42,165 bases of DNA. It comes from an uncultured Candidatus Saccharibacteria bacterium. Its GTDB lineage: Bacteria; Patescibacteriota; Saccharimonadia; Saccharimonadales; Saccharimonadaceae. The translations under genes were made by a program, and so were the position numbers. This document shows, piece after piece, positions 1,013 through 14,160 of the stretch (position 1 is the first letter of the stretch; the number at the start of each line of letters is the position of its first letter). The notes beneath the pieces were generated by a model that was not told where the DNA came from, did no database searches, and saw only the letters and a program-made list of their open reading frames with translations. The DNA is taken from the NCBI GenBank assembly GCA_964629385.1, contig CAZVUR010000001.1, forward strand, positions 1 to 42,165, in the 5' to 3' direction.

Positions 1013-1087
1013 TGGGGTGTCGCCAAGTGGTAAGGCACATGGTTTTGGTCCATGCATTCGGGGGTTCGAATCCCTCCACCCCAGCCA
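1013..1087 (+). tRNA. tRNA-Gln (anticodon UUG), CCA encoded
   Basis: Hand-folded cloverleaf: acceptor TGGGGTG/CACCCCA with U1:A72, G73-CCA, anticodon loop TTTTGGT, T-loop GGTTCGAATCC. Near-identical in outline to E. coli tRNA-Gln. Confidence 0.9.
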
Positions 1088-1998: not shown

Positions 1999-2268
1999 AT
2001 GAAGAAAGAGCTAAAGCCACGCGCGATTCGTCGTCTTAAGATTATCGAAGGTCAGATTCGCGGCCTGCAAAAAATGGTCGAAGAAGACAAGTACTGTATC
2101 GACATTATTACCCAGGCCTCGGCAATTAAAGAGGCACTATCCGGCGTCGAAGATTTATTGCTTGAGAATCACTTGAGTACCCATGTTATTCACCAGATTA
2201 AAAGCGGTGAGGATGCGCAGGCGACCGAAGAGATTCTAAAAGTATATAAATTGAAGCGAAAAAAATAA
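1999..2268 (+). CDS. csoR: CsoR/RcnR-family metal-sensing transcriptional repressor
   Basis: 89 aa with RRLKIIEGQIRGLQKMVEEDKYCIDIITQ...ENHLSTHV, the typical DUF156 architecture. Sits upstream of a P1B ATPase. Confidence 0.85.
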   Translation: MKKELKPRAIRRLKIIEGQIRGLQKMVEEDKYCIDIITQASAIKEALSGVEDLLLENHLSTHVIHQIKSGEDAQATEEILKVYKLKRKK

Positions 2269-2294
2269 GTATAGGGATTTAGGAGGGGTAAGAA

Positions 2295-4526
2295 ATGGCA
2301 AAGTACACATGTCCGATGCATCCAGACGTTACGAGCAATGAACCGGGTTTATGTCCGAAATGCAACATGAATCTTGTATCGGATGATGGCACAGAAGATA
2401 AAACCGACGATGATCATGGTCACAGCAACTCATCGGTCACAGCGCATAACAGCGTATACGCTTGTCCTATGCATCCAGATGTTACATCGGATAACCCAGG
2501 TATGTGTCCAAAGTGCCACATGGCACTCGAAAAGAAGAAGCAATCATCACATGCTCAGCACGACCATCATGACAAGCATGCTGGTCACAACCCAAACATG
2601 TTTAGGCAGAAGTTTTGGATTAGTTTGCTACTGACTATTCCGACATTGATATTTTCTCCGATGATACAGGGTTGGTTTGGGGTTAATCTGACATTTACTG
2701 GTAGTGAATATATCTCAGCAATCTTCGGCATCATTATATTCTTTTACGGTGGCATGGTGTTTCTAAAAAGTGCCAAAGCGGAGCTTGCGGCTCGACAGCC
2801 GGGTATGATGACACTGATTTCGATGGCGATAACAGTGGCGTTTGTCTATAGTACGCTCGTAACGCTCAAGCTCGTTAACGGCATGGACTTTTGGTGGGAA
2901 CTTGCCACACTGGTGACGATTATGTTGCTCGGACATTGGCTAGAAATGGCATCAGTGGAAAGTGCCCAGGGCGCACTCAACGAGCTTGCCAAACTGCTGC
3001 CTGATGAAGCGGAGCTGATCGAACATGGAAAAAGTCGCAAGGTCTCGGTAAGTCAGCTTAAGGTAGGTGATTCTGTATTGGTTCGCCCCGGCGCGCAGGT
3101 TCCGGTAGATGGAAAAGTCATCAAAGGTAGTTCTGAGGTTAACGAATCAATGCTAACCGGTGAATCAAAGCCGGTGAAGAAAACAGTCGGAGCTGAGGTT
3201 ATTGGTGGGACGATTAATGCAAATGGTGCTTTAACGATTGAAGTTACGAAAGTTGGCGGCGATACGACGCTGGCCGGCATTATGAAACTGGTTGAAGATG
3301 CCCAAACTAGCAAGTCAAAAACTCAAGTGCTGGCAGATAAAGCGGCCTTCTACCTGACATTTGTTGCGCTTGGTGCGGCACTCCTGACATGGATAGGCTG
3401 GTGGATGGCTGGTGCGTCGGCGGACTTTATTTTTGAACGAGTTGTCACCGTACTGGTAATTGCCTGTCCGCATGCGCTTGGTCTGGCTATTCCTCTCGTC
3501 ACGGCTATCTCTACGACACTCGCAGCGAAAAATGGGTTGCTGGTACGGGAACGTATGGCACTTGAATCGGCACGTAATATCGACGTCATACTATTTGATA
3601 AGACAGGCACGCTTACTAAGGGTGAGCAAGGCGTGGTTGGCATCCTCGCCAAAGACCAGAGCCGTACTTTGAGTATTGCTGCTGCACTTGAACGCGAATC
3701 AGAGCATCCGATTGCAAAAGCAATTTTCCAGTACGCACACGATCAAAATGTGCCGGAAACTCACACCACTGACTTTTCGGCACTTTCTGGCCGTGGTGTA
3801 CGAGCTAAAGTTGATGGCAAAACTGTGTATGTCGGCGGTCCGAGACTACTTGAAGAGTTGAAACTGAAGCTTGATAATGAATTACAAAAGGCAGCAGATG
3901 AAGCCTCAAACGACGGAAAAACAGTTGTGTATGTCGTCGAAAACGAGACCATTCTCGGTGCAATTATGCTAGCTGATGTTATCCGCGAAGAGTCCAAGGA
4001 GGCCGTTACTCGGCTGCACAGTATGGGCAAACGCGTTGCGATGCTAACAGGAGACAGTAAGGGCGTGGCGGCTTGGGTTGCCAAAGAACTCGGCATCAAA
4101 GAGTACTTCGCCGAAGTCCTGCCGGAGAATAAAGCCGAAACGGTCAAGAAGCTACAGGCTGATGGCAGTCGAGTTGCCATGGTTGGCGACGGCGTGAACG
4201 ATGCGCCTGCACTAACACAGGCAAATATAGGCATTGCGATTGGTGCTGGTACGGACGTGGCGATTGAGTCGGCAGGTATCGTGCTAGCGAGCAGCGACCC
4301 GCGCGGTGTGGCGAAGATAGTCACGCTTTCAAAAGCAACCTACCGTAAGATGCTGCAAAACCTTGCCTGGGCAACTGGTTACAATGCCCTCGCGATTCCA
4401 TTGGCCGCTGGCGTCACTTCGGCATTTGGTTTTGTCCTCTCGCCAGCATTAGGGGCAGTACTAATGTCACTTTCGACGATTATTGTTGCTATCAATGCTC
4501 AGTTCTTACGACGGATTAAATTATAA
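2295..4526 (+). CDS. copB: Heavy-metal (copper) translocating P1B-type ATPase, CPH-type with a His-rich N-terminus
   Basis: DKTGTLT, GDGVNDAP, TGES and a transmembrane CPH motif (VIACPHALGL). The N-terminus has two CPMHPDVTS..CPKC fingers and His-rich stretches. Confidence 0.9.
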   Translation: MAKYTCPMHPDVTSNEPGLCPKCNMNLVSDDGTEDKTDDDHGHSNSSVTAHNSVYACPMHPDVTSDNPGMCPKCHMALEKKKQSSHAQHDHHDKHAGHNPNMFRQKFWISLLLTIPTLIFSPMIQGWFGVNLTFTGSEYISAIFGIIIFFYGGMVFLKSAKAELAARQPGMMTLISMAITVAFVYSTLVTLKLVNGMDFWWELATLVTIMLLGHWLEMASVESAQGALNELAKLLPDEAELIEHGKSRKVSVSQLKVGDSVLVRPGAQVPVDGKVIKGSSEVNESMLTGESKPVKKTVGAEVIGGTINANGALTIEVTKVGGDTTLAGIMKLVEDAQTSKSKTQVLADKAAFYLTFVALGAALLTWIGWWMAGASADFIFERVVTVLVIACPHALGLAIPLVTAISTTLAAKNGLLVRERMALESARNIDVILFDKTGTLTKGEQGVVGILAKDQSRTLSIAAALERESEHPIAKAIFQYAHDQNVPETHTTDFSALSGRGVRAKVDGKTVYVGGPRLLEELKLKLDNELQKAADEASNDGKTVVYVVENETILGAIMLADVIREESKEAVTRLHSMGKRVAMLTGDSKGVAAWVAKELGIKEYFAEVLPENKAETVKKLQADGSRVAMVGDGVNDAPALTQANIGIAIGAGTDVAIESAGIVLASSDPRGVAKIVTLSKATYRKMLQNLAWATGYNALAIPLAAGVTSAFGFVLSPALGAVLMSLSTIIVAINAQFLRRIKL

Positions 4527-4537
4527 GGAGCTAACCC

Positions 4538-5488
4538 ATGCATAACCACGACGAACACGAACATCATCACCATCATCATAATACTGACACTGCTGATATT
4601 CCTGCCGACCGTATGGCCGTCTGTCCAGTAACAGGCGACGCAATCGATACAGCAGAAGCTGAAAAGCTTGGACATTTCAGGGACGTGGACGGCCAGCGAA
4701 TGTATTTGTGCTGCGATACATGTGTACAGCTGTTCGATAAAAATCCTGAGCAGTACGTAGATCATCATCTTGGCCACGAACATCACCGGCATATTCCGAC
4801 AACAGGCACACTTCGCTTGAAGGAAAAAGAACACCTGACAGATAATGTTTGGGCGTTTCGTTTCACTACCGACCAGCCGCTATCGTGGACACCGGGTCAA
4901 TTCATTCGTATTGAAATTCCTCATGACAACCCTGACGGTGAAGGCACTAAACGATGGTTCACTATCTCATCAACGCCACATGATGGCTTTATCCAAATCA
5001 CGACTCGTGTGACCGATACTTCGTTTAAGCGAGCATTAGCTGCTCTCGAAGTTGGCGAAAAAGTACAGCTCATCGAGCAGCCAGATGGCGATTTTGTCTG
5101 GAAAGAGAGCGATAAGCCGTTAATATTCGTCGCAGGAGGTATCGGGATTACACCATTTTACAGCATGCTGAGGGCGCAAGGTCATAGCAGGCTACCGGTA
5201 TCTGCTACGCTTATCTACAATGGACGAACAGAGGATTTACCATTTAAGACAGAGTTTGAAGAAGCAAGTAAGCGTCATCCGGAGTTTACCGTGCATTATA
5301 TTATCGGTGAGCCAGTTAGCATCGAAAAGCTGACTGAAATTGTACCAGCCATCAACACATCACAAGTTTATATTTCAGGCCCCGAATCAATGGTTGAGAC
5401 ACTCGGCAAACAGTTAGAAGACAATGGGTTGGCTAGCAATAATCTCCATCAAGATTTCTTTCCTCATTACAACGAAGCGAATTACTAG
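4538..5488 (+). CDS. His-rich/YHS metal-binding domain fused to a ferredoxin-NADP reductase-like flavoprotein
   Basis: N-terminal HEHHHHHH and a YHS-like CPVTGD...YLCCDTCVQLF. C-terminal RWFTISS (RxYS-like FAD motif) and GGIGITP (NAD(P) motif). Confidence 0.7.
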   Translation: MHNHDEHEHHHHHHNTDTADIPADRMAVCPVTGDAIDTAEAEKLGHFRDVDGQRMYLCCDTCVQLFDKNPEQYVDHHLGHEHHRHIPTTGTLRLKEKEHLTDNVWAFRFTTDQPLSWTPGQFIRIEIPHDNPDGEGTKRWFTISSTPHDGFIQITTRVTDTSFKRALAALEVGEKVQLIEQPDGDFVWKESDKPLIFVAGGIGITPFYSMLRAQGHSRLPVSATLIYNGRTEDLPFKTEFEEASKRHPEFTVHYIIGEPVSIEKLTEIVPAINTSQVYISGPESMVETLGKQLEDNGLASNNLHQDFFPHYNEANY

Positions 5489-5527
5489 AAATATGACACA
5501 TGGTGCTACTTACGGTAAAATAAAGAT

Positions 5528-5902
5528 ATGAAGAGAGTCTTCCGTGGAATTGTTTCGGTGTTCATGCTGACAGTGCTTAGCGTACTGTCGTTAGGTGTAC
5601 ACGCAGCCGCAGCACAGACGATGAACATGAAGCACTCGATGGGGGGTGCATCCCATCAGATGAGCTCATCTAGCTGTTTTACTGCATGCACGACAGCAAC
5701 ACTCCACAAGGAGGACATTCTCAAAGATAGTGAAAAGGATGAGGACGATGAGCTCCAGCCTCCGTTTTATGTCCAATTTCAAGCATCGCCCATGTTGGCT
5801 TCGGAGGAAATACATCGTCAAGAGGCAAAGTCTGCCATAGATCGAGAGCCACCTCCTGGCGGCGCACCTGCTTATATAGAGCTGGCTGTTTTTCGCGCCT
5901 GA
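5528..5902 (+). CDS. Secreted Met/His-rich hypothetical protein in the copper island
   Basis: Signal-peptide-like N-terminus (VFMLTVLSVLSLGVHAAAA) followed by QTMNMKHSMGGASHQM. No recognisable family. Confidence 0.45.
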   Translation: MKRVFRGIVSVFMLTVLSVLSLGVHAAAAQTMNMKHSMGGASHQMSSSSCFTACTTATLHKEDILKDSEKDEDDELQPPFYVQFQASPMLASEEIHRQEAKSAIDREPPPGGAPAYIELAVFRA

Positions 5903-5950
5903 GAATCACTATTTATGCATATTTGATAAATAGTTAACTTAGGAGTAACC

Positions 5951-6619
5951 ATGAACAATAAGAAATTCTTTACTATAATTGCTGCTGTGATTGTTTTGGC
6001 AGTCGGCGGTGCCGCACTGTATTACGGTCTACGTGGCGACACAACTGCGCCGAATAGTTCTGATATGTCCGGTATGAACCACTCTATGAACAATAGTGAC
6101 TCATTAGTTGACACGAGTAGTACTACTTACAAGCAGTACGCAGCTCTGACGGGAGAAGAATATGACCGGAACTTCATTGCTAATATGATTGTTCATCATG
6201 AGGGCGCTGTTAGTATGGCCGAACTTGCATTAGCCAATGCGAAACATCAGGAGTTTAAAGACATGGCAAATGACATCATCTCTGCTCAAAATGAAGAAAT
6301 TAGCCAGATGAAGTCATGGCAGCAGGCTTGGGGCTATCCATCATCAAGTGGGGATAATATGATGGATCACTCTGCAATGGGTATGATGAGTGAGATGTCC
6401 GGAATGGAAGACGCACTAAAAGGCAAAACTGGTGATGAATTCGATAAGGCGTTTATCGAGCAAATGGTTATGCACCATCAATCAGCGATAGACATGGCTG
6501 GACCTGGTGAAGAGAATGCCGAGCATGAAGAACTGGGAGATTTAACAAAAGCCATTGTCGTCGCGCAGACAAAAGAAATTAAACAAATGAAACAATGGCA
6601 GTCTGACTGGGGCTACTAA
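5951..6619 (+). CDS. DUF305 domain protein (two repeats), membrane anchored
   Basis: Two copies of FIxxMIxHHxxAxxMA (FIANMIVHHEGAVSMA, FIEQMVMHHQSAIDMA) and a ...QMKxWQxxWGY ending. Confidence 0.8.
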   Translation: MNNKKFFTIIAAVIVLAVGGAALYYGLRGDTTAPNSSDMSGMNHSMNNSDSLVDTSSTTYKQYAALTGEEYDRNFIANMIVHHEGAVSMAELALANAKHQEFKDMANDIISAQNEEISQMKSWQQAWGYPSSSGDNMMDHSAMGMMSEMSGMEDALKGKTGDEFDKAFIEQMVMHHQSAIDMAGPGEENAEHEELGDLTKAIVVAQTKEIKQMKQWQSDWGY

Positions 6620-7227
6620 TGAAACGAGCGCTAGTAGCAGGCTTTCTAGCTGTGGCTGCATTGGGTGTAGCGGGTTGGTTCTTATTCAAAGGCCAACCTG
6701 CGTCAACACCCAGAGAGGCCAACGGTAACGCTCAAAGGCAAGAACAGACCTCGAACCCGAACGAACATGACTTCTTTGATGTTGACTTTTCTCGAAAGAT
6801 GATTGTTCACCACCAGCAGGCCATAGAAATGACCGATGCGATACTGGTGACTTCAGCAAATCCAACGATTCGCGAGCTTGCTACTTCGATACGCCAGAAA
6901 CAGTCTGAAGCCGAGCAGCGGTATAAGGACTGGCTGAATGAGTGGGGTGAAACGTATACCAATTTATCGGACTTCCCACAAATGGACGGGCATGATATGT
7001 ATCCATCGTATCCGGGCTTAGTGCCCGCAGCGAGTATGAGTAAGCTTAAGTCTGCAGCGGGCACCGAAGCAGATGAGCTGTTCGTAAGCTTAATCACCGT
7101 ACACCATCAAGGCGGCATCGAGATAGGTGAAATGAGTAGGAAACTTCAGTACGGCAAGCTCATCGAATATAAGAATAAAGTCTTTAAAAGCTATCAAGAC
7201 GACCTTGATAGGCTCAAGTTGTTATAA
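6619..7227 (+). CDS. DUF305 domain protein
   Basis: FSRKMIVHHQQAIEMT and FVSLITVHHQGGIEIG motifs. Its start overlaps the previous stop codon. Confidence 0.75.
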   Translation: MKRALVAGFLAVAALGVAGWFLFKGQPASTPREANGNAQRQEQTSNPNEHDFFDVDFSRKMIVHHQQAIEMTDAILVTSANPTIRELATSIRQKQSEAEQRYKDWLNEWGETYTNLSDFPQMDGHDMYPSYPGLVPAASMSKLKSAAGTEADELFVSLITVHHQGGIEIGEMSRKLQYGKLIEYKNKVFKSYQDDLDRLKLL

Positions 7228-7237
7228 AGGAGCATGA

Positions 7238-7894
7238 ATGAAGATTAGTAGGAATAAGATATTCATAGTCATTGTGACTATACTAGCGATTGTTGCCGCA
7301 GCCATTTGGTATTTTGGTGTGTTTTCGATTAAGCCCGAGAAGGTCACTCCCGCTAACGATGCAGCAAAAACAAAGCAGACTAAGGAACAAGTTTCGGATA
7401 GTAAGTTTGCAACACTTACAGGCGATGCCTTTGATGAGGCCTTCATCGCTGATATGCTTGCTCATCACGATGGAGCAATCACTATGTCGGAGCAGGCACA
7501 AGCTATGACGGCACATGAGGAAATTAGAACTCTCGCCGGTAATATTACGCAAGCGCAATCAATGGAAATGATTCAAATGCGTGAATGGCAGCAAGCATGG
7601 GGCTTTAAGATCACGAATAGTGGCGGTCACATGAGTCATGGCGGAGGCGGAATGGAGATGGCGGGCGACATGGTTGAGATGCAAAACAAACTAAATGATT
7701 TAACTGGTGAAGCTTATGACAAGGAATTTCTTAAGCAAATGATCCTTCATCACGAGCAAGCCGTAGATATGGCTAAATATGCGGACAGTAATGCCAAGCG
7801 TCAAGAGATAAAAGACTTAGCCAGTGTCATCATTACGGCCCAAAAAGCAGAAATACAACAGATGAAACAGTGGCAAGATAGCTGGGGCTACTAG
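7238..7894 (+). CDS. DUF305 domain protein (two repeats), membrane anchored
   Basis: FIADMLAHHDGAITMS and FLKQMILHHEQAVDMA motifs. Ends QMKQWQDSWGY like the 5951 gene. Confidence 0.8.
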   Translation: MKISRNKIFIVIVTILAIVAAAIWYFGVFSIKPEKVTPANDAAKTKQTKEQVSDSKFATLTGDAFDEAFIADMLAHHDGAITMSEQAQAMTAHEEIRTLAGNITQAQSMEMIQMREWQQAWGFKITNSGGHMSHGGGGMEMAGDMVEMQNKLNDLTGEAYDKEFLKQMILHHEQAVDMAKYADSNAKRQEIKDLASVIITAQKAEIQQMKQWQDSWGY

Positions 7895-7897
7895 TAC

Positions 7898-8302
7898 ATG
7901 CATAACAAGAGTACGATCATATTTTTAGTAATTTTCTTGCTACTACTAGGGGCTATTGGTAGTGGTATTTGGACGGCGCTTAACAATCGTCAAGCTCAGC
8001 CAACTCATGACACGCAAACCTCCGATGAGGCCAAAGTGTTTACGCAAAATGAGGTTGCCGAACATGCGACAAAGGATGATTGCTGGACGATTATTTCTGG
8101 TGACGTATACGATCTGACAAAGTTCATCAACCGCCATCCTGGTGGTAATGAAATACTTCGAGCATGTGGTGTGGACGCTACTGATCTATTTAACTCTCGA
8201 ATGACTACCGCTGGCCAGCCTGTCGGCTCGGGTTCCCCGCACAGTCAAGTGGCACGCGAGCAGTTGGCGCAACTAAAAATTGGAGTATACAGTCAAGAAT
8301 AA
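7898..8302 (+). CDS. Membrane-anchored cytochrome b5-like heme-binding domain protein
   Basis: N-terminal TM helix, then EVAEHATKDDCWTIISGDVYDLTKFINRHPGG, which is the cyt b5 HPGG motif. Confidence 0.75.
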   Translation: MHNKSTIIFLVIFLLLLGAIGSGIWTALNNRQAQPTHDTQTSDEAKVFTQNEVAEHATKDDCWTIISGDVYDLTKFINRHPGGNEILRACGVDATDLFNSRMTTAGQPVGSGSPHSQVAREQLAQLKIGVYSQE

Positions 8303-8467
8303 TCAAGAAACAGTCAGCCTTAGCAGGTTTACGTCATCGTTTGCGGCAAAATAGAATAGTTTTGTGTCGTTATTGATTTTCATTACATATTTAATCTTTT
8401 TTAACAAAGTTTTAAAAATACGTAGTAGAATTTGCAATATTACCAAAAGTGTTACAAATACTCATGA

Positions 8468-8497
8468 GTTCGAAACACGTCCACTAGCCCCATACCA
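8468..8497 (+). repeat. tRNA-3'-end-like core repeat, copy 0 (diverged)
   Basis: GTTCGAAACACGTCCACTAGCCCCATACCA. Compare the tRNA-Gln 3' end GTTCGAATCCCTCCACCCCAGCCA and the other core copies. Confidence 0.6.
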
Positions 8498-8500
8498 TTA

Positions 8501-8532
8501 TTGACAAATAATACAACTTATGCTAATATAAT
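8501..8532 (+). promoter_or_regulatory. Near-consensus sigma70 promoter P1 driving GC-rich cassette 1
   Basis: TTGACA (8501-8506), 17 nt, TAATAT (8524-8529) with TG at 8521-8522. An alternative TATAAT lies at 8527-8532. Confidence 0.65.
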
Positions 8533-8595
8533 ATTGATGTCCTAGCTTTGGAATCCGAGATTTCTCCACTCGACAAGAGGAGGCGAGGAGTTAAC

Positions 8596-9039
8596 ATGAA
8601 CACGCAGACCCTGGTCGAGTTCGACCAGAGCCAGGCCCAGACCTACAACGCGCTCTACGTCGTGAAGCAGGCCGTTCTCGTTCCCGTCCCGGACGGCATC
8701 GAGACGGTCATCAACGCGGAGTGGGGCGAGGAGCAGAAGTTCGTCGGTGCCTGGTACGGCATCTACGTCGACGGCGCGATCGTCTACGGCTCCGCCAAGA
8801 AGGAGTTCGACGACAGCCACGGCAAGACCGACGAGCTCGAGAACGGGTACTTCAAGGACACGCCCATCAGCGCGTACCAGTACCACGGCCCGACCGCACG
8901 AGTCCAGACCGTCCTCGCGGACGGCACCGTCGAGACCGGGAACACCATCTCGGACGGCGACTGGCTCGTGAAGTGGCCGGCCGGCGAGGTCGGAGTCCTG
9001 AAGGACGACAACTTCCGCAAGCGCTACCAGGTCAACTGA
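8596..9039 (+). CDS. GC-rich foreign ORF 1a, hypothetical protein (147 aa)
   Basis: ATG at 8596 lies 5 nt after GAGGAG. G/C-dominated third codon positions. The C-terminal DGDWLVKWPAGEVGVL is weakly reminiscent of small phage-type PGDYG-like proteins (unverified). Confidence 0.7.
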   Translation: MNTQTLVEFDQSQAQTYNALYVVKQAVLVPVPDGIETVINAEWGEEQKFVGAWYGIYVDGAIVYGSAKKEFDDSHGKTDELENGYFKDTPISAYQYHGPTARVQTVLADGTVETGNTISDGDWLVKWPAGEVGVLKDDNFRKRYQVN

Positions 9040-9044
9040 TCCAC

Positions 9045-9185
9045 ATGAGGCGCAGGCTGAGGAGGATCAAGCACGGGATCTTCGGACACCCCCGCGAGGA
9101 CATGATCTTCGGCGACATGGTCGAAGGCAACACCTGCACGTCGTGTGGGTGGAACTTCAAGCGGGCCGACATCACCGTGGGCTGA
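9045..9185 (+). CDS. GC-rich foreign small ORF 1b (46 aa, CxxC)
   Basis: ATG lies 5 nt after the ORF 1a stop. Same G/C-rich third-position bias. Sequence MRRRLRRIKHGIFGHPREDMIFGDMVEGNTCTSCGWNFKRADITVG. Below the 60-aa track cutoff as a separate ORF. Confidence 0.5.
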   Translation: MRRRLRRIKHGIFGHPREDMIFGDMVEGNTCTSCGWNFKRADITVG

Positions 9186-9194
9186 CAACAACCC

Positions 9195-9298
9195 CAACTA
9201 CACCCTCAGGAGAGGAGAGCACCCGAGCATGGGAGCCCCTCGAATGAGGGTGCTTCCATATCTAAATGTTCCTGAAACACATCCACCAGCCCCAGCCA
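9195..9298 (+). repeat. Cassette 3' module M, copy A (GC-rich hairpin half plus AT-rich linker plus core copy 1 at 9268-9298)
   Basis: CAACTACACCCTCA...GGGAGCCCCTCGAATGAGGGTGCTTCC-ATATCTAAAT-GTTCCTGAAACACATCCACCAGCCCCAGCCA. Aligns with copies at 10073 and 10627. Confidence 0.8.
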
Positions 9299-9363
9299 AG
9301 CTTAAGTATTATAAATAGGCCTTTTGGGTCTATTTTGTTATTATCGTTTTAGTGAAAAATTTA

Positions 9364-9495
9364 ATGAACAAAAAGATCGCAAATCAATCCAAGCGTAATA
9401 TTCTTTTCCTATACATATTATTTTTTGTTGGAGTTCTGATTTTTCTTTACGCAATTTTTGTGACATTGCGATACGTTCTTACTGAATCTTGGTAG
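9364..9495 (+). CDS. Small hydrophobic peptide (43 aa), native AT-rich composition
   Basis: MNKKIANQSKRNILFLYILFFVGVLIFLYAIFVTLRYVLTESW. One TM helix. The stop lies 5 nt before core copy 2. No clear RBS was seen. Confidence 0.35.
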   Translation: MNKKIANQSKRNILFLYILFFVGVLIFLYAIFVTLRYVLTESW

Positions 9496-9500
9496 TATTC

Positions 9501-9530
9501 TTCCTGAAACACATCCACTAGCCCCAGCCA
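9501..9530 (+). repeat. tRNA-3'-end-like core repeat, copy 2
   Basis: TTCCTGAAACACATCCACTAGCCCCAGCCA. It is followed by AAGACGCTTATGGTTTAAAT, which matches the trailer after copy 5 (10923-10941). Confidence 0.8.
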
Positions 9531-9578
9531 AGACGCTTATGGTTTAAATACTTCATTCGGAAGTCTATTTGTTTATGC

Positions 9579-9608
9579 TTGCAATTCCTTATTATTAAAC
9601 GGTAATCT
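9579..9608 (+). promoter_or_regulatory. Sigma70-like promoter P2 driving GC-rich cassette 2
   Basis: TTGCAA (9579-9584), 18 nt, TAATCT (9603-9608). The composition jump at ~9617 coincides with the predicted +1. Confidence 0.5.
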
Positions 9609-9645
9609 ATATTTACACGTTCCACACCGAGCTAAGGAGAGTGCG

Positions 9646-10089
9646 ATGGACGTGAGTATCAAACCAGCAGATAAGCAGGCGCGTGAGGCAGTCATCAAGG
9701 CGCGCGAAGACAAGGAGGCTGCTCGGGTTGCGCGCAAAGAGAAGCGCAAGAAGCGGAAGGCCGAGAAGCGAGACCCGGTCGTTGCCAAACGGCTCAGGCG
9801 GCGGATCGAGAAAGAAGTTCTCGCTGATCTTCTCACCGAGAAGCGGTGCTACCTCAATGCTCAGCCTTCGACCGGCCAGTATGTGATCGACACGCGAATT
9901 CGCTACGGCTGGACGCTGAAGCGGAAGTGGCGTTACGACAAAGACACCGTCGAGCGAATCTTCCTGGAAGTGCTCGCAAGTCACAACGGTTTCGAGCACA
10001 AGGCCGACTACCGTTGTCAGGGCCCGTGGTGGTGTGTCCGAATCGATGTTCAGTACACCCTGCTGGACCACTCAAGTACACCCTCATGA
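9646..10089 (+). CDS. GC-rich foreign ORF 2, hypothetical (147 aa): Lys/Arg/Glu-rich N-terminal half, Trp/Cys-containing C-terminal domain
   Basis: ATG lies 6 nt after AAGGAGAG. G/C-rich third positions. The last codons and the TGA lie inside module M copy B. Confidence 0.7.
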   Translation: MDVSIKPADKQAREAVIKAREDKEAARVARKEKRKKRKAEKRDPVVAKRLRRRIEKEVLADLLTEKRCYLNAQPSTGQYVIDTRIRYGWTLKRKWRYDKDTVERIFLEVLASHNGFEHKADYRCQGPWWCVRIDVQYTLLDHSSTPS

Positions 10090-10172
10090 GAGGAGACGCG
10101 ACCAAGTTGGGAGCCCCTCGAATGAGGGTGCTTCCATATCTAAATGTTCCTGAAACACATCCACTATCCCCA
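10073..10172 (+). repeat. Cassette 3' module M, copy B (core copy 3 at 10146-10172, truncated before GCCA)
   Basis: Identical to copy A over GGGAGCCCCTCGAATGAGGGTGCTTCCATATCTAAATGTTCCTGAAACACATCCAC. Runs directly into promoter P3. Confidence 0.8.
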
Positions 10173-10188
10173 ATTGTGGGTTAGATGA

Positions 10189-10217
10189 TTGACATAATAT
10201 TATTTATTTGTTATAAT
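10189..10217 (+). promoter_or_regulatory. Consensus sigma70 promoter P3 driving GC-rich cassette 3
   Basis: TTGACA (10189-10194), 17 nt, TATAAT (10212-10217) with TG at 10209-10210. Confidence 0.75.
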
Positions 10218-10267
10218 ATATTTAAGACGTGACTTTCACGTCCGAACCGAGTGAGAAAGGCATTCAG

Positions 10268-10615
10268 ATGCCGAAGTACGCGTTCAACAGCAAGAAGATT
10301 GTCGACCTCGTCGACGAGGACGAGGACTTGGTCCGGATCCTGGACCAGAAGACGGTTCGGGCTGACAACGTCCAGATCAAGGGCTACCCGACCAAGATGG
10401 ACGGCCATCTCTACCCCGTCAACTTCGTGCTCACCACTTCGAGCTACTACTACGAGGTCTCCATCTACCTGGAGACCGCCGAGATCCAGAAGTGCGACAT
10501 CTCCAGCTCCAGCGTGATCGAGTCCGACGTGTTCACTGCGCTGGACGACTTCACCGAGAAGCTGATGGCAATCCTCGAGGAGGTCGAGTCCGCCGAGAAG
10601 ATCGCCGCCGTCTGA
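10268..10615 (+). CDS. GC-rich foreign ORF 3, acidic hypothetical protein (115 aa)
   Basis: ATG at 10268 lies after GAGAAAGG. 19 of the first 20 codons end in G/C (hand count). The track ORF begins at an upstream GTG (10229) that lacks an RBS. Confidence 0.7.
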   Translation: MPKYAFNSKKIVDLVDEDEDLVRILDQKTVRADNVQIKGYPTKMDGHLYPVNFVLTTSSYYYEVSIYLETAEIQKCDISSSSVIESDVFTALDDFTEKLMAILEEVESAEKIAAV

Positions 10616-10626
10616 ATCAGCTCGCT

Positions 10627-10733
10627 CAACTACACCCTCATGAAAGGACAAGCGCCTGCAACAATGGAGCTCCTCGATTGAGGGTGCTTCCATTTGTAAA
10701 TTCTTCCTGAAACACATCCACTAACCCCAGCCA
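10627..10733 (+). repeat. Cassette 3' module M, copy C (core copy 4 at 10704-10733)
   Basis: CAACTACACCCTCATGAAAGGA...GGAGCTCCTCGATTGAGGGTGCTTCC-ATTTGTAAATTC-TTCCTGAAACACATCCACTAACCCCAGCCA. The hairpin arms are preserved through C-to-T (G:U) changes. Confidence 0.8.
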
Positions 10734-10734
10734 T

Positions 10735-10768
10735 AGAAAAAGACTGAGCATCTGCTCGGTCTTTTTCT
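10735..10768. terminator. Strong bidirectional-looking hairpin terminator
   Basis: AGAAAAAGACTGAGC-atct-GCTCGGTCTTTTTCT, a ~15 bp stem flanked by an A-run and a T-run. Confidence 0.65.
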
Positions 10769-10769
10769 A

Positions 10770-10904
10770 TAACTCGGGCCGGGACTACGAGCCCCCGATG
10801 CTTTTGCAAAGCAAAAGTCGGGGAGTTCGGCGTAGCGCAGCGATGATAAGAAAGCACCGAAGGTATTTTCTTATCAAGCAAGCGGAGGAGGCCTCATGGC
10901 AGAT
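10770..10904 (+). other. GC-rich structured non-coding segment abutting the tRNA-Gln 3'-end repeat (probable element-side arm of an att junction)
   Basis: No credible ORF. Hairpins CCCCGA..GCTTTTGC-aaa-GCAAAAG..TCGGGG and GATAAGAAA-12 nt-TTTCTTATC. Confidence 0.4.
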
Positions 10905-10922
10905 ATCCCTCCACCCCAGCCA
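10905..10922 (+). repeat. Exact 18-nt direct repeat of the tRNA-Gln 3' end (core copy 5, putative attR)
   Basis: ATCCCTCCACCCCAGCCA is identical to 1070-1087. Confidence 0.85.
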
Positions 10923-10936
10923 AGATGCTTATGTTT

Positions 10937-10962
10937 AAAATGACGAGAAATCGTCATTTTTT
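10937..10962 (+). terminator. Intrinsic terminator, likely the displaced original tRNA trailer terminator
   Basis: AAAATGACGA-gaaa-TCGTCATTTT followed by TT. Confidence 0.6.
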
Positions 10963-10971
10963 ATTGCTAAA

Positions 10972-11388
10972 ATGATAAGTATGAAATCAGTCGCTAAGCT
11001 TTTAATCAAGAATGGTAATGAGTTTTTAATGATGTACAGGAGTGATCATCCAACCTTTGGTATTGACCCTGATCTACCTGGCGGAACAGTGGAAGGAAGC
11101 GAGACCGTACTTCAAACCATGCTGAGAGAAGTCTACGAGGAGATCGGTGTAGTAGTTGAATCAAGTAAAGCTAGTGAAATATTCTCAGGTAACGACTATT
11201 CGGCACATGGGACTTACTATTCTCTGTTTATTACAGAGGTCGAGGACAAACCAGAGATACGCATGAGCTGGGAGCACTCATCGTATGAGTGGCTCAAGGA
11301 GTCGGAGTTTATAGAAAAGGCGGCTAGCGCAAAAGATACCTATATGCACATGGTTAGTGAGGTTCTAGCGTCGTATTCAATGTCATAA
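10972..11388 (+). CDS. NUDIX hydrolase
   Basis: Nudix box GGTVEGSETVLQTMLREVYEEIGV. Native composition. The start may be the ATG at 10981. Confidence 0.8.
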   Translation: MISMKSVAKLLIKNGNEFLMMYRSDHPTFGIDPDLPGGTVEGSETVLQTMLREVYEEIGVVVESSKASEIFSGNDYSAHGTYYSLFITEVEDKPEIRMSWEHSSYEWLKESEFIEKAASAKDTYMHMVSEVLASYSMS

Positions 11389-11390
11389 TA

Positions 11391-11420
11391 TTCCTGAAAC
11401 ACATCCACTAGTTCCAGCCA
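11391..11420 (+). repeat. tRNA-3'-end-like core repeat, copy 6
   Basis: TTCCTGAAACACATCCACTAGTTCCAGCCA begins 2 nt after the NUDIX stop codon. Confidence 0.75.
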
Positions 11421-11435
11421 CGCTAAAGCATTACA

Positions 11436-11469
11436 AGTAAGTGCCAGAGAAATCCGGCACTTACTATTT
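11436..11469. terminator. Hairpin terminator between the convergent NUDIX and hsp20 genes
   Basis: AGTAAGTGCC-10 nt-GGCACTTACT followed by ATTT. Confidence 0.5.
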
Positions 11470-11477
11470 AGCGCAGC

Positions 11478-11807
11478 TTAGCTTTCAATAGCAATCTGCT
11501 TTGGCTTTGGTAGTTCTTTAAACTGGATAGATACTTTCAGAACACCATCTTTCATCTTAGCCTTAATAGATTCTTCATCTGCAGCTTCTGGCAAGCGAAT
11601 GCTGCGGTAAAAGCTTGAAGAGCTTTCGCGCACAATATACTTTTTGTCTTTATCCTTTTCTTTCTCATGTCGCTCGGCACGAATAACCAAGTTTCCTTTG
11701 TCAACATTAATAGTTACGTCTTTTTGATCAAAATTAGGTAAATGTGCTTCGACATGAAGTTCTTTGTCGTCTTTTGACGTATAAACATCTGTTGCTGGCA
11801 GTTGCAT
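11478..11807 (-). CDS. Hsp20/alpha-crystallin small heat-shock protein. The coding region probably extends upstream to ~11888-11900.
   Basis: Alpha-crystallin domain (VDKGNLVIRAERH...FYRSIRLP...DGVLKVSI). The in-frame upstream sequence encodes KFDPFAEIQALQKQFFSDDWF, typical of an Hsp20 N-terminus, and has no ATG. Confidence 0.8.
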   Translation of the reverse strand: MQLPATDVYTSKDDKELHVEAHLPNFDQKDVTINVDKGNLVIRAERHEKEKDKDKKYIVRESSSSFYRSIRLPEAADEESIKAKMKDGVLKVSIQFKELPKPKQIAIES

Positions 11808-11968
11808 TGTACGACCCGGCGAAAACCAATCGTCTGAAAAGAATTGTTTTTGTAAGGCTTGGATTTCCGCAAACGGATCAAATTTAATTAAGCTACTCGT
11901 CGTAACCTCCTTTCATTTGATTGTTAGTGCGAAAAGGATAAACCTTTTCTATTTCCGTTATAGCAAAA

Positions 11969-11995
11969 TTAGCACTCTCATGTCAAGAGTGCTAA
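11969..11995 (-). promoter_or_regulatory. CIRCE element (HrcA operator) upstream of hsp20
   Basis: TTAGCACTC-tcatgtcaa-GAGTGCTAA, a perfect match to the CIRCE consensus TTAGCACTC-N9-GAGTGCTAA. Confidence 0.85.
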
Positions 11996-12177
11996 TCAAA
12001 GTATGGAATTTGCCTGCTTCACCTGTGATGTACAGTTCGTTATAACGATGTGATGATTATATATTTTGTAACTGTGCTAATATTATTGCGTTTTAGTTTA
12101 ATTACCATAACTTGCTGAACCCAAAGCAACAAGCATGTATTGCGTATAGCAATTTTTAGCGCATAATTAAGCCATAC

Positions 12178-14160
12178 ATGAAAACCATGATTTTAGGTGT
12201 ATCACTCAAGCAGTTACTTACAATATTTGTCGTAAGCCCGCTACTGTTCGTGCTTACAGTGTACGCCGTAACGTCTATTGTGATTCAGAGCTGGGCTGTG
12301 GCAATAGCTGGCGTTTTGTTGATTCAACTGTTTCAAGTGGTGTGCCAAGTAATTGTGAGTAAGTTAATACGCGTGTTTGGCGTTTTTATATTGTTAATAA
12401 ACTGCTTTATTGGTTATGGGCTTGCCTTATGGATAGCGCTACTATTTCTGCCAGGTTTTGAAACAGTCACACTTGGCGAAAGTATTATGATTGCATGGCT
12501 TTATGCCCTTATTGTCACCATTATTCAATGGGCATTTGTGGCATCATCTGATGATTTTTTACTCGAGCAGTTTATTCGTACCTCAAAAAAATCCTCGCCC
12601 AAGGCATATGATAGCCCAGGGTTTATTTTTGTTCAGCTAGACGGCGTTTCTTCGCACCTACTTGATTGGCAGTTAAAAACTGGCAACATGCCAAACATTG
12701 GCCGCTTGGTGCAATCGGGTGAGTACGCATTTGAAACATACCGCACCCAAATTCCATCAACCACCCCGGCATCACAAGCTGGCTTACTCTTTGGCACGAA
12801 TGACCAGATTCCAGCATTTAGATGGTACGAACGCCAAACAGGCAAGCTTATCGTTGCTAATCAGCAATCAGGCGCCCAGCTAATCGAAAAGCGACTAAGC
12901 ACTGGTAATGGGTTATTGGCCGACGGCGGGGTAAGCCTGGGCAATCTTTTTAGCGGTGACGCAGCCGAAAGCATTATGGTTATGAGCAAGCTCCAGGGTA
13001 ATACCGGCTCAAAGGCCACCATGGGGCAATATTCTCGCTACTTATCAAGTCCGCATGGCTTTATGCGCCTGTTTATTTTATCTCTCGGCGAAGTAGTAAA
13101 AGAAATCTTCCAGGCCAGGCACCAGCGCATTAAGAATATAACGCCGCGTGTCGATAGGCACGCCAGTTACATGGTGCTGCGGGCCGCGACTAACGTATTT
13201 TTACGCGAACTACAAACAACAATCGTACTCGATAAAATGAGCCGAGGAGTCAACTCGCTATACGTCGATTACTTAGACTACGATGAAATTGCGCACCACG
13301 CAGGGATTGCACGGCCAGAATCGCTTGATGCACTTAGCGGCCTAGATAAAGTTGCGGGCATTCTTACTAAAGCCGCTACCTACGCCATGCGGGAATACCA
13401 TGTCGTATTCGTATCAGATCATGGTCAAAGCCAAGGCCAAACATTTTTGCAACTGAATAACGGCACTAGCCTGGAATCTGTTCTAGCGAATACAGTAGGT
13501 ACCAACGCAGTGCAGAGTGATACCGACGAAAGCGAAACCTACACTGCAGTCCGTAACTTAGCGTCACAGCAAAAGCAATTTAGAAAAATCGCCCCACAGG
13601 CTACCCGTAGCTCTACCACGCTTCAATCAAAAGTTGTCGTCACAGGCTCTGGCAATCTAGGCAACGTATGGCTGACTGAATTTACAAGCAGGCCAACCAA
13701 GGAACAGCTTGAACAAACGTACCCTCAGTTAATTCCAAAATTACTTGCTACACCAGGGATAGGTCTCATTCTTGTTCATTCAAAAAAGCAGGGGCCTATT
13801 GCCATAGGCAAAGAGGGCACCATACAACTGGAAACTGCTACAGTAACCGGCAAGAATCCGCTCGCTAGTTACCCCAGTGCCCTGGCGAGCGAACTTTTAC
13901 GCTTACGCGCCATGAAAAATACGCCGGATATTACCATCATATCGAGTTATGACCCTTCGACCGGTGAAGTGCACGCTTTTGAAGAATTGGTCGGCAACCA
14001 TGGTGGGATTGGCGGCTGGCAAACGGATGCCTTATTACTTCATCCGAAATCTTTACGAATTAAGAAACGCTTTTATACAGATGGAAAGCTCATTAATAGC
14101 ACGACGATACATAATATATTCATTGACTGGATGAAAGACGCCGGGCAGAGAAAGGCGTAG
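12178..14160 (+). CDS. Membrane protein with an alkaline-phosphatase-superfamily domain (nucleotide pyrophosphatase/phosphodiesterase-like)
   Basis: ~4 N-terminal TM helices, then VQLDGVS, STTPASQAGLL, DYDEIAHHAG and VSDHGQS metal-site motifs. Confidence 0.65.
   Translation: MKTMILGVSLKQLLTIFVVSPLLFVLTVYAVTSIVIQSWAVAIAGVLLIQLFQVVCQVIVSKLIRVFGVFILLINCFIGYGLALWIALLFLPGFETVTLGESIMIAWLYALIVTIIQWAFVASSDDFLLEQFIRTSKKSSPKAYDSPGFIFVQLDGVSSHLLDWQLKTGNMPNIGRLVQSGEYAFETYRTQIPSTTPASQAGLLFGTNDQIPAFRWYERQTGKLIVANQQSGAQLIEKRLSTGNGLLADGGVSLGNLFSGDAAESIMVMSKLQGNTGSKATMGQYSRYLSSPHGFMRLFILSLGEVVKEIFQARHQRIKNITPRVDRHASYMVLRAATNVFLRELQTTIVLDKMSRGVNSLYVDYLDYDEIAHHAGIARPESLDALSGLDKVAGILTKAATYAMREYHVVFVSDHGQSQGQTFLQLNNGTSLESVLANTVGTNAVQSDTDESETYTAVRNLASQQKQFRKIAPQATRSSTTLQSKVVVTGSGNLGNVWLTEFTSRPTKEQLEQTYPQLIPKLLATPGIGLILVHSKKQGPIAIGKEGTIQLETATVTGKNPLASYPSALASELLRLRAMKNTPDITIISSYDPSTGEVHAFEELVGNHGGIGGWQTDALLLHPKSLRIKKRFYTDGKLINSTTIHNIFIDWMKDAGQRKA

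Follow-up and report, generated by a model that had tools for sequence, protein, structure and literature searches.

'I-shaped' intrinsic terminators, which lack a U-tract, have been described in Actinobacteria, and 3' stem-loops that stabilise mRNAs are also known. The R sites of the phage T7 early genes are irregular RNase III hairpins of ∼20 bp with internal loops and a conserved sequence, placed between consecutive genes, and once processed they leave the upstream mRNA with a protective 3' hairpin. The trp and ermC leaders are four-segment attenuators with two alternative, complete pairing schemes. In integrons, each cassette ORF of an array ends in a conserved imperfect hairpin of 60–100 nt (attC, or Vibrio cholerae repeat). 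The tycheposon islands of Prochlorococcus are reportedly tRNA-anchored integration hot spots with partial-tRNA repeats. To our knowledge, almost no cis-regulatory RNAs have been described from the candidate phyla radiation, and we know of few natural elements with covariation for two alternative folds of the same nucleotides.

Here we describe a module of ∼65 nt that occurs in Saccharibacteria (TM7) genomes just past the stop codon of unusually GC-rich small genes, and that is present three times in a stretch of 42,165 nt from an uncultured Candidatus Saccharibacteria bacterium (hereafter the window). The module would add an undescribed structured RNA motif from the candidate phyla radiation. 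It is a marker both of small orphan genes that have phage-like folds and third positions of nearly all G or C, in a genome of 46% GC, and of a tRNA-Gln-anchored cassette array. It is a simple sequence handle for such genes in metagenomes, and its function could show how episymbionts express, stabilise or exchange accessory genes.

Like I-shaped terminators and 3' stem-loops, the module is a GC-rich hairpin at the stop codon, occupies the terminator position of orthologues and is often the sole hairpin before the next promoter; unlike them, its sequence is conserved across unrelated genes, it has a second covarying fold and a GA/GA loop, and a terminator scan did not flag it. With the T7 R sites it shares an irregular conserved hairpin between genes, next to cassette proteins with phage-like folds, but here the genes have individual promoters and lie on a bacterial chromosome, and any cleavage by RNase III is hypothetical. 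As in the trp and ermC leaders there are four segments, two pairing schemes and a translated ORF ending beside segment 1, whereas the module stands at the 3' end of a full-length gene and not in a leader, with neither a U-tract nor a consistently sequestered downstream start. The likeness to attC lies in a hairpin at the cassette 3' end with a basal helix, an internal loop and a bulged second helix. However, this basal helix is CACCCTCA/TGAGGGTG and not RYYYAAC/GTTRRRY (a YYYCAAC lies upstream without a complementary GTTRRRY), no intI or integrase domain was found in the scanned ORFs of the window or the called genes of related loci, cassettes A and C have consensus promoters, the cassettes that end at 9501 and 11391 have no module, and the junctions fall at a neighbouring core repeat. 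It is this core repeat that resembles the tycheposons: direct repeats similar to a tRNA 3' end delimit cargo downstream of the tRNA, and the content varies between genomes. In contrast to tycheposons, the units here are single genes of 0.2–0.9 kb without an adjacent integrase, and a truncated serine-recombinase-like ORF lies 7 kb away.

The module and the genes beside it

The three copies lie on the + strand at 9195..9262 (copy A), 10073..10140 (copy B) and 10627..10696 (copy C), and both their sequences and the covariance models identify them (copy A with E-values of 1e-23 and 6.5e-25). No other place in the 42-kb window matches the module models comparably: the three copies score between 1e-18 and 1e-25 and the next best match has an E-value of 0.03, so the copies exceed what chance would give. 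The end-to-end alignment of three copies proposed by a first-pass annotation, a model's reading of the bare sequence, thus holds. Copies A and B are 97% identical over 65 nt. As that annotation had also noted, the GC-rich part stops at GCTTCC|AT in all three copies and is followed by an AT-rich linker and then by the 32-nt core.

Twenty distinct versions of the module were found on other Saccharibacteria-like contigs, each just 3' of a small ORF (a scan of genome contigs with a 16-mer, which was too short, gave 119 matches, mostly due to chance, of which only the Saccharibacteria loci were useful). The adjacent ORFs belong to eight families without mutual protein similarity, and most have a GC content of 0.54–0.67 in loci of 43–51% GC. 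Across these unrelated genes the module is 75–92% identical, and its similarity does not track the ORF family. Related loci usually carry a single copy, and at some of them the core repeat is absent. The hairpin starts 0–40 nt past the stop codon, typically ∼18 nt; the distance to the 5' arm of its basal helix (P1) is 15 nt in copy A, 10 nt at locus L151 and 0 nt in copy B, where the stop codon of ORF B (10087–10089) directly abuts this arm. Next to ORF A the module persists, within a conserved neighbourhood, as far as ∼60% protein identity, and it is nearly constant beside an ORF whose protein identity has dropped to 49%, which argues that it is under a selective constraint of its own.

Upstream of module A lie ORF A (8596–9039, + strand, 147 aa, GC3 0.96) and a zinc-ribbon-like ORF (9045–9185, + strand, 46 aa, GC3 0.93). 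ORF B (9646..10089, + strand, 147 aa, GC 0.58, GC3 0.70) precedes module B, and the orphan ORF C (10268..10615, + strand, 115 aa, GC3 0.94) precedes module C; at the position of ORF C in related contigs, gene callers predict an ORF of 160 aa on the other strand. For ORF A there are 30 homologues, and all whose source is named or whose contig was retrieved come from Saccharibacteria; its AlphaFold model (pLDDT 91) matches the folds of uncharacterised phage proteins only. Nine homologues and no Pfam match were found for ORF B. When the cassette proteins were searched against Pfam and NCBIfam nothing rose above threshold, a PADLOC search for defence systems gave no match, and PHROGs gave two weak matches to families of unknown function. 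Cassette A has a sigma-70-type promoter (8501..8529, + strand, TTGACA-17-TAATAT with the TG of an extended -10), a layout also found ahead of its orthologues in other genomes, and cassette C has a consensus sigma-70 promoter (10189..10217, + strand, 12/12 matches, TG present).

Most module-host ORFs have a GC3 of 0.9–0.99, compared to 0.45 for the genome (46% GC), and the high GC3 persists in orthologues at 62–80% identity. Recent transfer from Actinobacteria was rejected, because high GC3 is kept in orthologues and all homologues that have a source name or a retrieved contig belong to Saccharibacteria-like DNA. A phage or plasmid origin of the DNA was likewise rejected: IMG/VR contains neither module nor core, and blastn gave no match in INPHARED or in PLSDB.

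Two mutually exclusive folds

The module is a real, conserved structured element with two mutually exclusive folds, each of which is supported by covariation. One is a long hairpin of ∼52 nt with ∼18 standard pairs and a possible tandem G.A. In copy A it comprises P1 (9201–9208/9245–9252, CACCCTCA with TGAGGGTG), P2 (9212–9215/9238–9241), the pair 9217/9237, P3 (9219–9220/9235–9236) and P4 (9222–9224/9231–9233), with a 3×3 internal loop between P1 and P2–P4 in which a conserved GA faces GA. P1 is identical to the 8-bp H1 of the first-pass annotation; that pairing is present in the sequence, not as an isolated hairpin but as the basal helix of a longer imperfect one. The alternative, H2, pairs 9229–9241 with 9246–9259 (13 bp). 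Its 5' side consists of ATGGGAGC (9229–9236) and CCCTC (9237–9241), its loop is GAAT, and its 3' side consists of GAGGG (9246–9250), a bulged T9251 and GCTTCCAT (9252–9259), followed by the tail ATCT. Thus H2 exists as annotated, except that its outer stem has 8 bp (ATGGGAGC/GCTTCCAT) and not 6. The corresponding positions are 10079–10086/10123–10130 for P1 and 10107–10137 for H2 in copy B, and 10633–10640/10679–10686 and 10663–10693 in copy C. Copy C indeed carries TCCTC and GATT, which leaves one U.G among the inner H2 pairs and requires that G:U be allowed; its 5' arm is 1 nt shorter, which results in a bulge.

Pairs were counted over a small sample of 19 distinct sequences, some of them close relatives, in an alignment fitted to H2. 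For the long hairpin, 92.4% of the cells were paired compared with 36–55% when partners were slid, and seven pairs had changed on both sides, which none of 500 shuffles reached. Compensatory changes within H1 include A-U to G-C in L153 and L158 and U-A to C-G in L158. For H2, 93.1% of the cells were paired (45–62% with slid partners) and three pairs, in eight cells, had changed on both sides; the H2 result also holds on a MAFFT alignment that was fitted to no structure. A single alignment column, 46 (G/A), has a covarying partner in each fold: column 74 in H2, column 37 in the long hairpin. The 19 sequences support both folds, and the proposal that H1 and H2 exclude each other holds. Among the bases that are unpaired and invariant are G22, A23 and A28 and a GGA motif.

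G.U outnumbers A.C in H2 (23 versus 4) and in P1 (3 versus 0), which favours the + strand there, whereas over the whole long hairpin the counts are 10 versus 12 and show no strand preference; the + strand reading proposed at first for H2 is supported there and in P1, but not over the entire long hairpin. In constrained folding, the long hairpin and H2 came to -29.9 and -27.8 kcal/mol in copy A, -28.8 and -25.7 kcal/mol in copy B, and -22.1 and -17.6 kcal/mol in copy C. The long hairpin was the lower-energy fold in 11 copies and H2 in five (n = 16), and the gap between them was at most 8.1 kcal/mol in 15 of the 16 and at most 5.4 in 14; the outlier was L153, in which the long hairpin was better by 18.9 kcal/mol.

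The absence of a known RNA family suggested by the first-pass annotation was borne out. Rfam 15 at gathering thresholds found two tRNAs in the whole window and nothing on the modules, and at E ≤ 10 between 8300 and 11600 it gave four weak matches far below threshold, none of them on a module. The module is, as a canonical terminator would be, a GC-rich hairpin directly downstream of a gene, and the long hairpin offers the roughly two helical turns of irregular duplex between genes that are expected of an RNase III site. A scan that required a U-tract (at least 5 T in 8, starting 0–2 nt after the stem) flagged 9313–9335 and 10937–10960 and no module; P1 is followed by GCTTCCATATCT and H2 by ATCTAAAT, and T-rich tails occur in a few distant copies (L158, L133 and L136). 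Nor are the copies in the window and at related loci dispersed in the manner of REP or BIME elements, as the three in 42 kb all lie within 1.5 kb. Several other candidates were rejected. The arms of H1 resemble the acceptor strands of a circularly permuted tRNA-Gln by eye, but local alignment on both strands gave z ≤ 2.4 outside the core. For a hok-mRNA-like pairing of the 5' UTR with the module, RNAduplex energies in 10 cassettes were no better than those of shuffles. A hairpin of a diversity-generating or retron type (DGR or retron) was discarded because the window encodes no reverse transcriptase domain, and a DGR also because no ORF 3' end is repeated within 7000–13000, hence there is no template repeat.

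The core repeat and tRNA-Gln

The core repeat is an element separate from the module; it resembles the 3' end of tRNA-Gln and bounds small cassettes downstream of tRNA-Gln. It is 32 nt long (TTCCTGAAACACATCCACTAGCCCCAGCCAAG) and starts at 9269, 10147 and 10704 after modules A, B and C, and its 16-nt seed occurs five times in comparison with 0.28 expected. All copies are on the + strand. Core copy 1 (9269–9300; 9254..9300 with its linker, repeat families D1 and D2) is part of an extended repeat that begins inside the 3' arm of H2 (TTCCATATCTAAATG...). Copy 3 (10147..10178), after module B, has a diverged 3' third, and copy 4 (10704..10735), after module C, is followed by a hairpin with a T-run (inverted repeat I1) at ∼10738–10770. 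The two remaining copies end AT-rich cassettes that have no module: copy 2 (9501..9532) a 43-aa cassette and copy 5 (11391..11422) a NUDIX cassette (10972–11388). A degenerate copy (GTTCGAAACACGTCCACTAGCCCCATACCAT, 8468..8498, + strand) stands at the start of the array.

The window contains a tRNA-Gln(UUG) gene (1013..1087, + strand) and a remnant of a tRNA-Gln 3' end (10894..10924, + strand), whose positions 10905–10922 reproduce the final 18 nt of the tRNA-Gln gene exactly (z = 8.3 relative to shuffles). The terminator after this remnant (10937–10960) is the one that follows tRNA-Gln in other genomes. Ordinary core copies are weakly tRNA-Gln-like, with z of 2.3–3.1 in four of the six tested and no excess over shuffles in the other two. 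A tRNA-Gln gene in the same orientation lies upstream of core copies or arrays in the window and at six other loci, five of them distinct (L141, L129/L096, L012, L025 and L048; L096 duplicates L129). The tRNA-Gln 3' end is the likely source of the core repeat and the likely integration anchor. The core marks cassette junctions that differ between genomes, so the recombination hot spot suspected earlier fits the core, but not the module, which occurs without the core and is kept beside the same gene down to ∼60% identity. The only candidate for a cognate integrase is a 327-aa ORF (964–1947, - strand) that weakly resembles large serine recombinases in their C-terminal part (E-values of 0.003 with Pfam and 5e-4 with NCBIfam XisF).

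Possible functions of the module

From the structure and position of the module we infer, tentatively and with somewhat less than even confidence, that it acts in cis as a structured + strand RNA of the 3' UTR that forms or protects the mRNA 3' end. It would be transcribed from the + strand within the mRNA of the small GC-rich accessory gene itself, and its primary fold would be the long hairpin (P1, the internal loop and P2–P4). This hairpin would set the 3' end of the mRNA, by terminating transcription without a U-tract or by serving as a site of double-strand processing. The 3' tail GCUUCCAU can instead invade the long hairpin and pair with AUGGGAGC-CCCUC to give the 13-bp H2; once freed, the tail would refold so that the 3' end is buried in a helix and shielded from 3'-to-5' exonucleases. 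A ribosome terminating beside the 5' arm of P1 might push the balance towards H2. Consistent with a role at the mRNA 3' end, orthologues of ORF A without the module have another hairpin at the same spot (a canonical terminator in L147, a hairpin without a U-tract in L149), and no hairpin other than the module separates the stop codon from the next promoter in L143, L150, L151, L153, L137, L139 and window copy B. Against termination, most copies have no U-tract after either hairpin although the genome has canonical terminators, and an RNA:DNA hybrid of the tail GCUUCCAU would be fairly stable, a disadvantage for intrinsic termination. In addition, since the stop-to-hairpin distance ranges over 0–40 nt, sensing of the terminating ribosome cannot be general, and a plain stabilising hairpin would need neither 75–92% identity across unrelated genes nor a second fold.

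The module might alternatively be an attenuator or switch, in which the ribosome finishing the upstream ORF, or a trans factor, decides whether transcription or translation runs on into the next cassette; we regard this as unlikely. Four segments (1, CACCCUCA; 2, GAGAGGAG; 3, GCCCCUC; 4, UGAGGGUG) can pair as 1:2 with 3:4 or as 1:4 with 2:3, both schemes are complete, conserved and nearly equal in energy, segment 2 is a nearly invariant Shine-Dalgarno-like sequence (GA.A.GGA), and in several copies the stop codon is within ribosome reach of segment 1 (0 nt in copy B, 10 in L151 and 15 in copy A). However, neither fold is followed by a U-tract, the distance to segment 1 reaches 40 nt, in most cases the downstream gene has a consensus promoter of its own immediately behind the module, the module's ATG varies (some copies have ATA, GTA or nothing in its place) and its frame shifts, and hairpins 1:2 and 3:4 would form first during transcription whether or not the ORF is translated. 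Of the switch suggested by the first-pass annotation, the two exclusive folds are supported, but no U-tract follows them and neither a downstream start nor a Shine-Dalgarno sequence is sequestered in a consistent way. The invariance of unpaired bases (G22, A23 and A28, and the GGA motif) goes beyond what pairing needs, and together with the occurrence of one element beside eight unrelated genes it is what a binding platform for a protein or small RNA acting in trans would predict, for instance a CsrA-like protein that recognises GGA in hairpin loops and co-regulates the GC-rich genes post-transcriptionally. We consider such a platform improbable; no candidate partner emerged, and the platform is compatible with formation or protection of the mRNA 3' end and does not exclude it.

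The position of the module at the 3' edge of single-gene cassettes, in arrays whose content varies between genomes, also invites a DNA-level reading, in which the + strand folds as ssDNA and is the target of a recombinase or HUH nuclease that mobilises the GC-rich cassettes, similarly to an integron attC site or the subterminal hairpin of a transposon. The long hairpin is attC-like (basal helix, symmetric internal loop, bulged second helix, variable tip), a YYYCAAC motif often lies upstream, and the similarity of modules does not follow the grouping by ORF family, which suggests exchange between cassettes. We nevertheless consider this distinctly unlikely: the complementary GTTRRRY box is absent, neither an integron integrase nor an HUH transposase or reverse transcriptase turned up in the window or among the called genes of 14 related loci, AT-rich cassettes of the same arrays carry the core without the module, and it is at the core that junctions vary from genome to genome. 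Moreover, the module stays beside ORF A to ∼60% protein identity with compensatory substitutions, and such linked retention and compensation is the behaviour of a transcript element. Finally, the 97% identity of copies A and B over 65 nt is consistent with recent duplication, and an ORF crosses both copies (MGAPRMRVLPYL...), so that the module might be a relic of cassette-end duplication or might encode a small peptide. It is very improbable that the module has no function of its own in either of these ways, as both folds show compensatory changes in diverged genomes and the module is retained while the neighbouring protein falls to 49% identity. A peptide was also rejected directly: a 1-nt difference in ATGG(G)AGC breaks the frame in 5 of the 19 copies, other copies have a different sequence in place of the ATG, and these frame-shifting length differences and missing starts indicate that no peptide is conserved.

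A bolder and improbable reading is that the module is the cis signal of an undescribed Saccharibacteria gene-cassette system, in which the hairpin would serve, as RNA or ssDNA, in capture, transfer or processing and not only in mRNA stability. Single genes recoded to a GC3 of ∼0.95 would, as part of the same improbable proposal, be set between a consensus promoter and the hairpin, in arrays bounded by tRNA-Gln-derived repeats. In its most extreme and purely speculative version, the actinobacterial-style codon usage would mean that the cassettes are built for expression in a high-GC host cell, by analogy with T-DNA. Two contigs, L008 and L142, end inside the module; these ends were rejected as RNA 3' ends and fit assembly breaks at a repeat instead.

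Two alternative folds of the module

The first-pass annotation had described three copies of a GC-rich module in which two hairpins, H1 and H2, compete for a shared strand. All three were present as described on the + strand, at 9195-9262 (copy A), 10073-10140 (B) and 10627-10696 (C). In copy A, CACCCTCA at 9201-9208 is complementary to TGAGGGTG at 9245-9252 (H1) and H2 lies at 9229-9259 as ATGGGAGC-CCCTC-GAAT-GAGGG-T-GCTTCCAT, with GAGGG common to both hairpins. The same parts occur in copies B (10079-10137) and C (10633-10693), and copy C carries the TCCTC and GATT reported for it, so that one inner H2 pair becomes U.G. As had also been noted, the GC-rich stretch stops in all three copies after GCTTCC, before AT, and is followed by an AT-rich linker and a 32-nt repeat (the core). 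Covariance models built from the module matched the 42-kb window at these three sites and nowhere else (E 1e-18 to 1e-25; next best match, E 0.03). The earlier failure to recognise a known RNA family agrees with our search of Rfam, which gave zero matches at curated thresholds and none on the modules at E <= 10. The module is not in Rfam, no description of it was found in the literature searched, and in kind it is a 3'-UTR hairpin or alternative-structure element.

Although the H1 pairing holds, constrained folding showed that it is not an isolated hairpin: its 8 bp (P1) form the base of a longer one, which continues through a 3x3 internal loop, P2 (GAGG/CCUC), one G-C pair, P3 (GC/GC) and P4 (CCC/GGG). 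The internal loop has a conserved GA opposite GA (window 9210-9211/9242-9243; columns 22-23/59-60 of our module alignment, A3), a possible tandem sheared G.A motif. On A3, which holds only 19 sequences, some of them close relatives, 92.4% of the long-hairpin cells are paired, compared with 36-55% when the partners are slid by 1-3 columns, and two-sided changes occur at seven pairs (0 of 500 shuffles reached this). Within H1, the related loci L153 and L158 have G-C in place of A-U, for which L139 shows a G.U intermediate, and L158 also has C-G in place of U-A. For H2, to which A3 was fitted, the paired share of cells is 93.1%, compared with 45-62% after sliding, with two-sided changes at three pairs (8 cells), and five sequences have A-U in place of the G.U pair at columns 48/72; the trend was the same on a MAFFT alignment not fitted to any structure.

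The shared segment bears on both folds. Column 46, which is either G or A, has a covarying partner in each fold: column 74 in H2 and column 37 in the long hairpin. In L153, GGG of this segment has become AAA; all three long-hairpin partners have changed to match, and two of the three H2 pairs are still standard. The behaviour of column 46 and of L153 is comparative evidence that both folds are in use. Of 16 copies, 11 were calculated to favour the long hairpin, by margins of 0.5-8.1 kcal/mol (18.9 in L153), and the other five to favour H2, by 0.4-4.3 kcal/mol. The proposal that the RNA is read from the + strand stood in part: G.U pairs outnumber A.C pairs by 23 to 4 in H2 and by 3 to 0 in P1, and these therefore point to the + strand, whereas the long hairpin as a whole is neutral (10 to 12, no strand preference). 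Judged from the sequences compared, the module is a real RNA element with two mutually exclusive folds, as had been claimed, each backed by covariation in the 19-sequence alignment.

Distribution and proposed function

Other versions of the module came from one metagenome pattern scan, from contigs encoding homologues of ORF A (8596-9039) or ORF B (9646-10089), the genes upstream of modules A and B, and from model searches of those contigs. This gave 20 distinct versions including those of the window, 19 of which are in A3. In every version the module lies on the sense strand just 3' of a small ORF, and these ORFs fall into eight families with undetectable mutual similarity. Most versions are 75-92% identical to copy A, and the three most distant ones 61-69%. 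Beside ORF B homologues the module is nearly constant while the protein falls to 49% identity; beside ORF A it is kept down to ∼60% protein identity. ORF A orthologues at 50-63% identity lack it and have another hairpin directly after the stop codon (in L147, a canonical terminator). In L143 and L150-L155, ORF A is followed by the module, a promoter and an AT-rich gene of ∼170 aa (with a PGDYG domain in L150-L152); these copies are therefore inherited together rather than inserted independently. The module was not found in the viral contigs, phage records or plasmid records searched.

The module is most likely, we infer, a cis-acting RNA with a role in forming or protecting the mRNA 3' end, because its position after the stop codon is fixed, because orthologues have ordinary hairpins or terminators in its place, because its constraint is stronger than that on the adjacent proteins, and because it is often the sole hairpin before the next promoter (L143, L150, L151, L153, L137, L139 and window copy B). 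The long hairpin may terminate transcription without a U-tract or be a processing site of the RNase III type. The end of P1 lies 7-8 nt short of the end of GCUUCCAU, the position at which the GC-rich block stops; in a transcript ending there, the tail could refold into H2 and the 3' end could be hidden. We put this mechanism forward tentatively, at slightly less than an even chance.

The main rival to a 3'-end role is a true attenuator-type switch, in which the exclusive folds would themselves be the control; we consider it unlikely. The first-pass annotation had alternatively suggested a recombination hot spot. That idea fits the core, which is linked to tRNA-Gln and at which breakpoints fall, but not the module, which often occurs without a core (L133, L136-L139, L143, L150-L158), and a DNA-level recombination signal in the module is improbable. 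Slightly less probable still is a binding platform for a protein or sRNA.

Several identities were rejected. A conserved peptide is contradicted by the frame shift between ATGGGAGC and ATGGAGC and by the ATG, which some copies lack or replace with ATA or GTA. The module is no canonical terminator, as it lacks a following U-tract and was not flagged by the terminator scan; such terminators do occur in the same genome (31 found versus 21 expected). An attC site is excluded by the absence of R boxes and integrase, by promoters within cassettes and by cassettes without a module, and part of a DGR or retron by the absence of a reverse transcriptase. Pairing of the module with the 5' UTR was no better than chance.

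Other hairpins were also seen. A long GC-rich one at 41361-41430, GCCCCCGCG...CGCGGGGGC, lacks a U-tract, directly precedes a promoter-like TGCTATACT and matches the long-hairpin model weakly (E 0.03). Variant hairpins similar to it, GCCCCCTCAGG...CCTGAGGGGGC with ATCTTAAAT after them, lie at the ends of other cassettes (L159 43-104; L141 at ∼5005-5034, - strand).

The core repeat and the cassette array

The window is part of a Saccharibacteria (TM7) chromosome of ∼46% GC with genes for ATP synthase, helicases and tRNA-modification enzymes, and its named relatives are "Candidatus Saccharibacteria bacterium". At 8468-11422 it holds an array of single-gene cassettes, each ending with a core (TTCCTGAAACACATCCACTAGCCCCAGCCAAG at 9269, 9501, 10147, 10704 and 11391; degenerate copies at 8468 and 10894); the repeat that ends the cassettes is about 32-47 nt long and similar to the 3' end of tRNA-Gln. 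Core and module are different elements. The module occurs only in the three GC-rich cassettes (ORF A plus a small zinc-ribbon-like ORF; ORF B; ORF C, 10268-10615), while two AT-rich ones (a 43-aa ORF; a NUDIX hydrolase) have a core and no module. In cassettes A and C the sigma-70 promoter is near-consensus and its -10 is extended.

The sequence at window 10905-10922 repeats the final 18 nt of the tRNA-Gln gene (1013-1087) without a mismatch, and the terminator after it is the one found 3' of tRNA-Gln in another genome. Ordinary cores align only loosely to tRNA-Gln, from the T-loop to the CCA end. A tRNA-Gln gene also precedes single cores or core arrays in L141 (7 cores in 5.5 kb), L129/L096, L012, L025 and L048. 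Array content varies between genomes, with breakpoints at the core: in L134 the HSP20 region directly follows cassette B, whereas in the window the two are separated by cassette C, a short non-coding segment and the NUDIX cassette. The array, downstream of tRNA-Gln and without an adjacent integrase (also in L141, L129/L096, L134 and L012), resembles a hot spot of integration or recombination whose units are the size of a gene. The sole recombinase-like gene nearby is a truncated ORF (964-1947, - strand) that adjoins the tRNA and weakly resembles serine recombinases. It belongs to an island (964-8302) between the tRNA and the array that also encodes a CsoR-type repressor, a copper P-type ATPase, an oxidoreductase with an NAD-binding domain, three DUF305 proteins and cytochrome b5.

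Opposite cassette C, the gene table of related public contigs has a 160-aa ORF (window 10211-10717, - strand; L001 11616-12098) and no sense-strand gene, which probably explains the absence of ORF C from the protein database.

GC3-rich host genes

The ORFs upstream of modules A and C have a GC3 of 0.93-0.96, compared with 0.42-0.48 in their neighbours (ORF B, 0.70), and this context raises the interest of the module. ORF A orthologues at 62-80% identity keep a GC3 of 0.83-0.99 (one 0.61) between AT-rich flanks, so that the bias is maintained and is not the trace of a recent transfer. Homologues whose source was named or whose contig was fetched all lay in Saccharibacteria-like DNA. The predicted structure of ORF A is confident (pLDDT 91) and beta-rich; it had zero matches in the PDB and instead resembled uncharacterised phage proteins. 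In other genomes its neighbours include TIR (ThsB-TIR), SLATT, Z1, Fic and PGDYG genes (family including L150-L156).

Small orphan ORFs with a GC3 of 0.89-0.96, in a genome whose other genes have 0.42-0.48, lie at 8596-9039, 9045-9185, 10268-10615, 24090-24239 and 40702-41001 (more weakly, 9646-10089); those at 24090-24239 and 40702-41001 have consensus promoters and no module. Where the upstream region was examined, an AT-rich near-consensus promoter preceded the GC3-rich ORFs (8501, 10189, 23653, ∼40649). The unit at 23650-24330 consists of a promoter (23653-23681), a GC-rich stretch of ∼400 nt in which no ORF is convincing, the 49-aa ORF at 24090-24239 and a GC-rich hairpin; it has no Rfam match and may be a structured leader or non-coding RNA. 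Adjoining it is a GC-rich tRNA (24651-24725) called as tRNA-Ile with anticodon AAT, which is unusual for bacteria. Finally, two unrelated GC-rich ORF families have in common a 5'-UTR hairpin with an ACUCGAC-containing loop, as CCC-ACTCGACAAA-GGG or CCTCT-ACTCGACCTT-AGAGG, at window 8560-8585 and upstream of ORFs in L150, L151, L153, L137 and L139.
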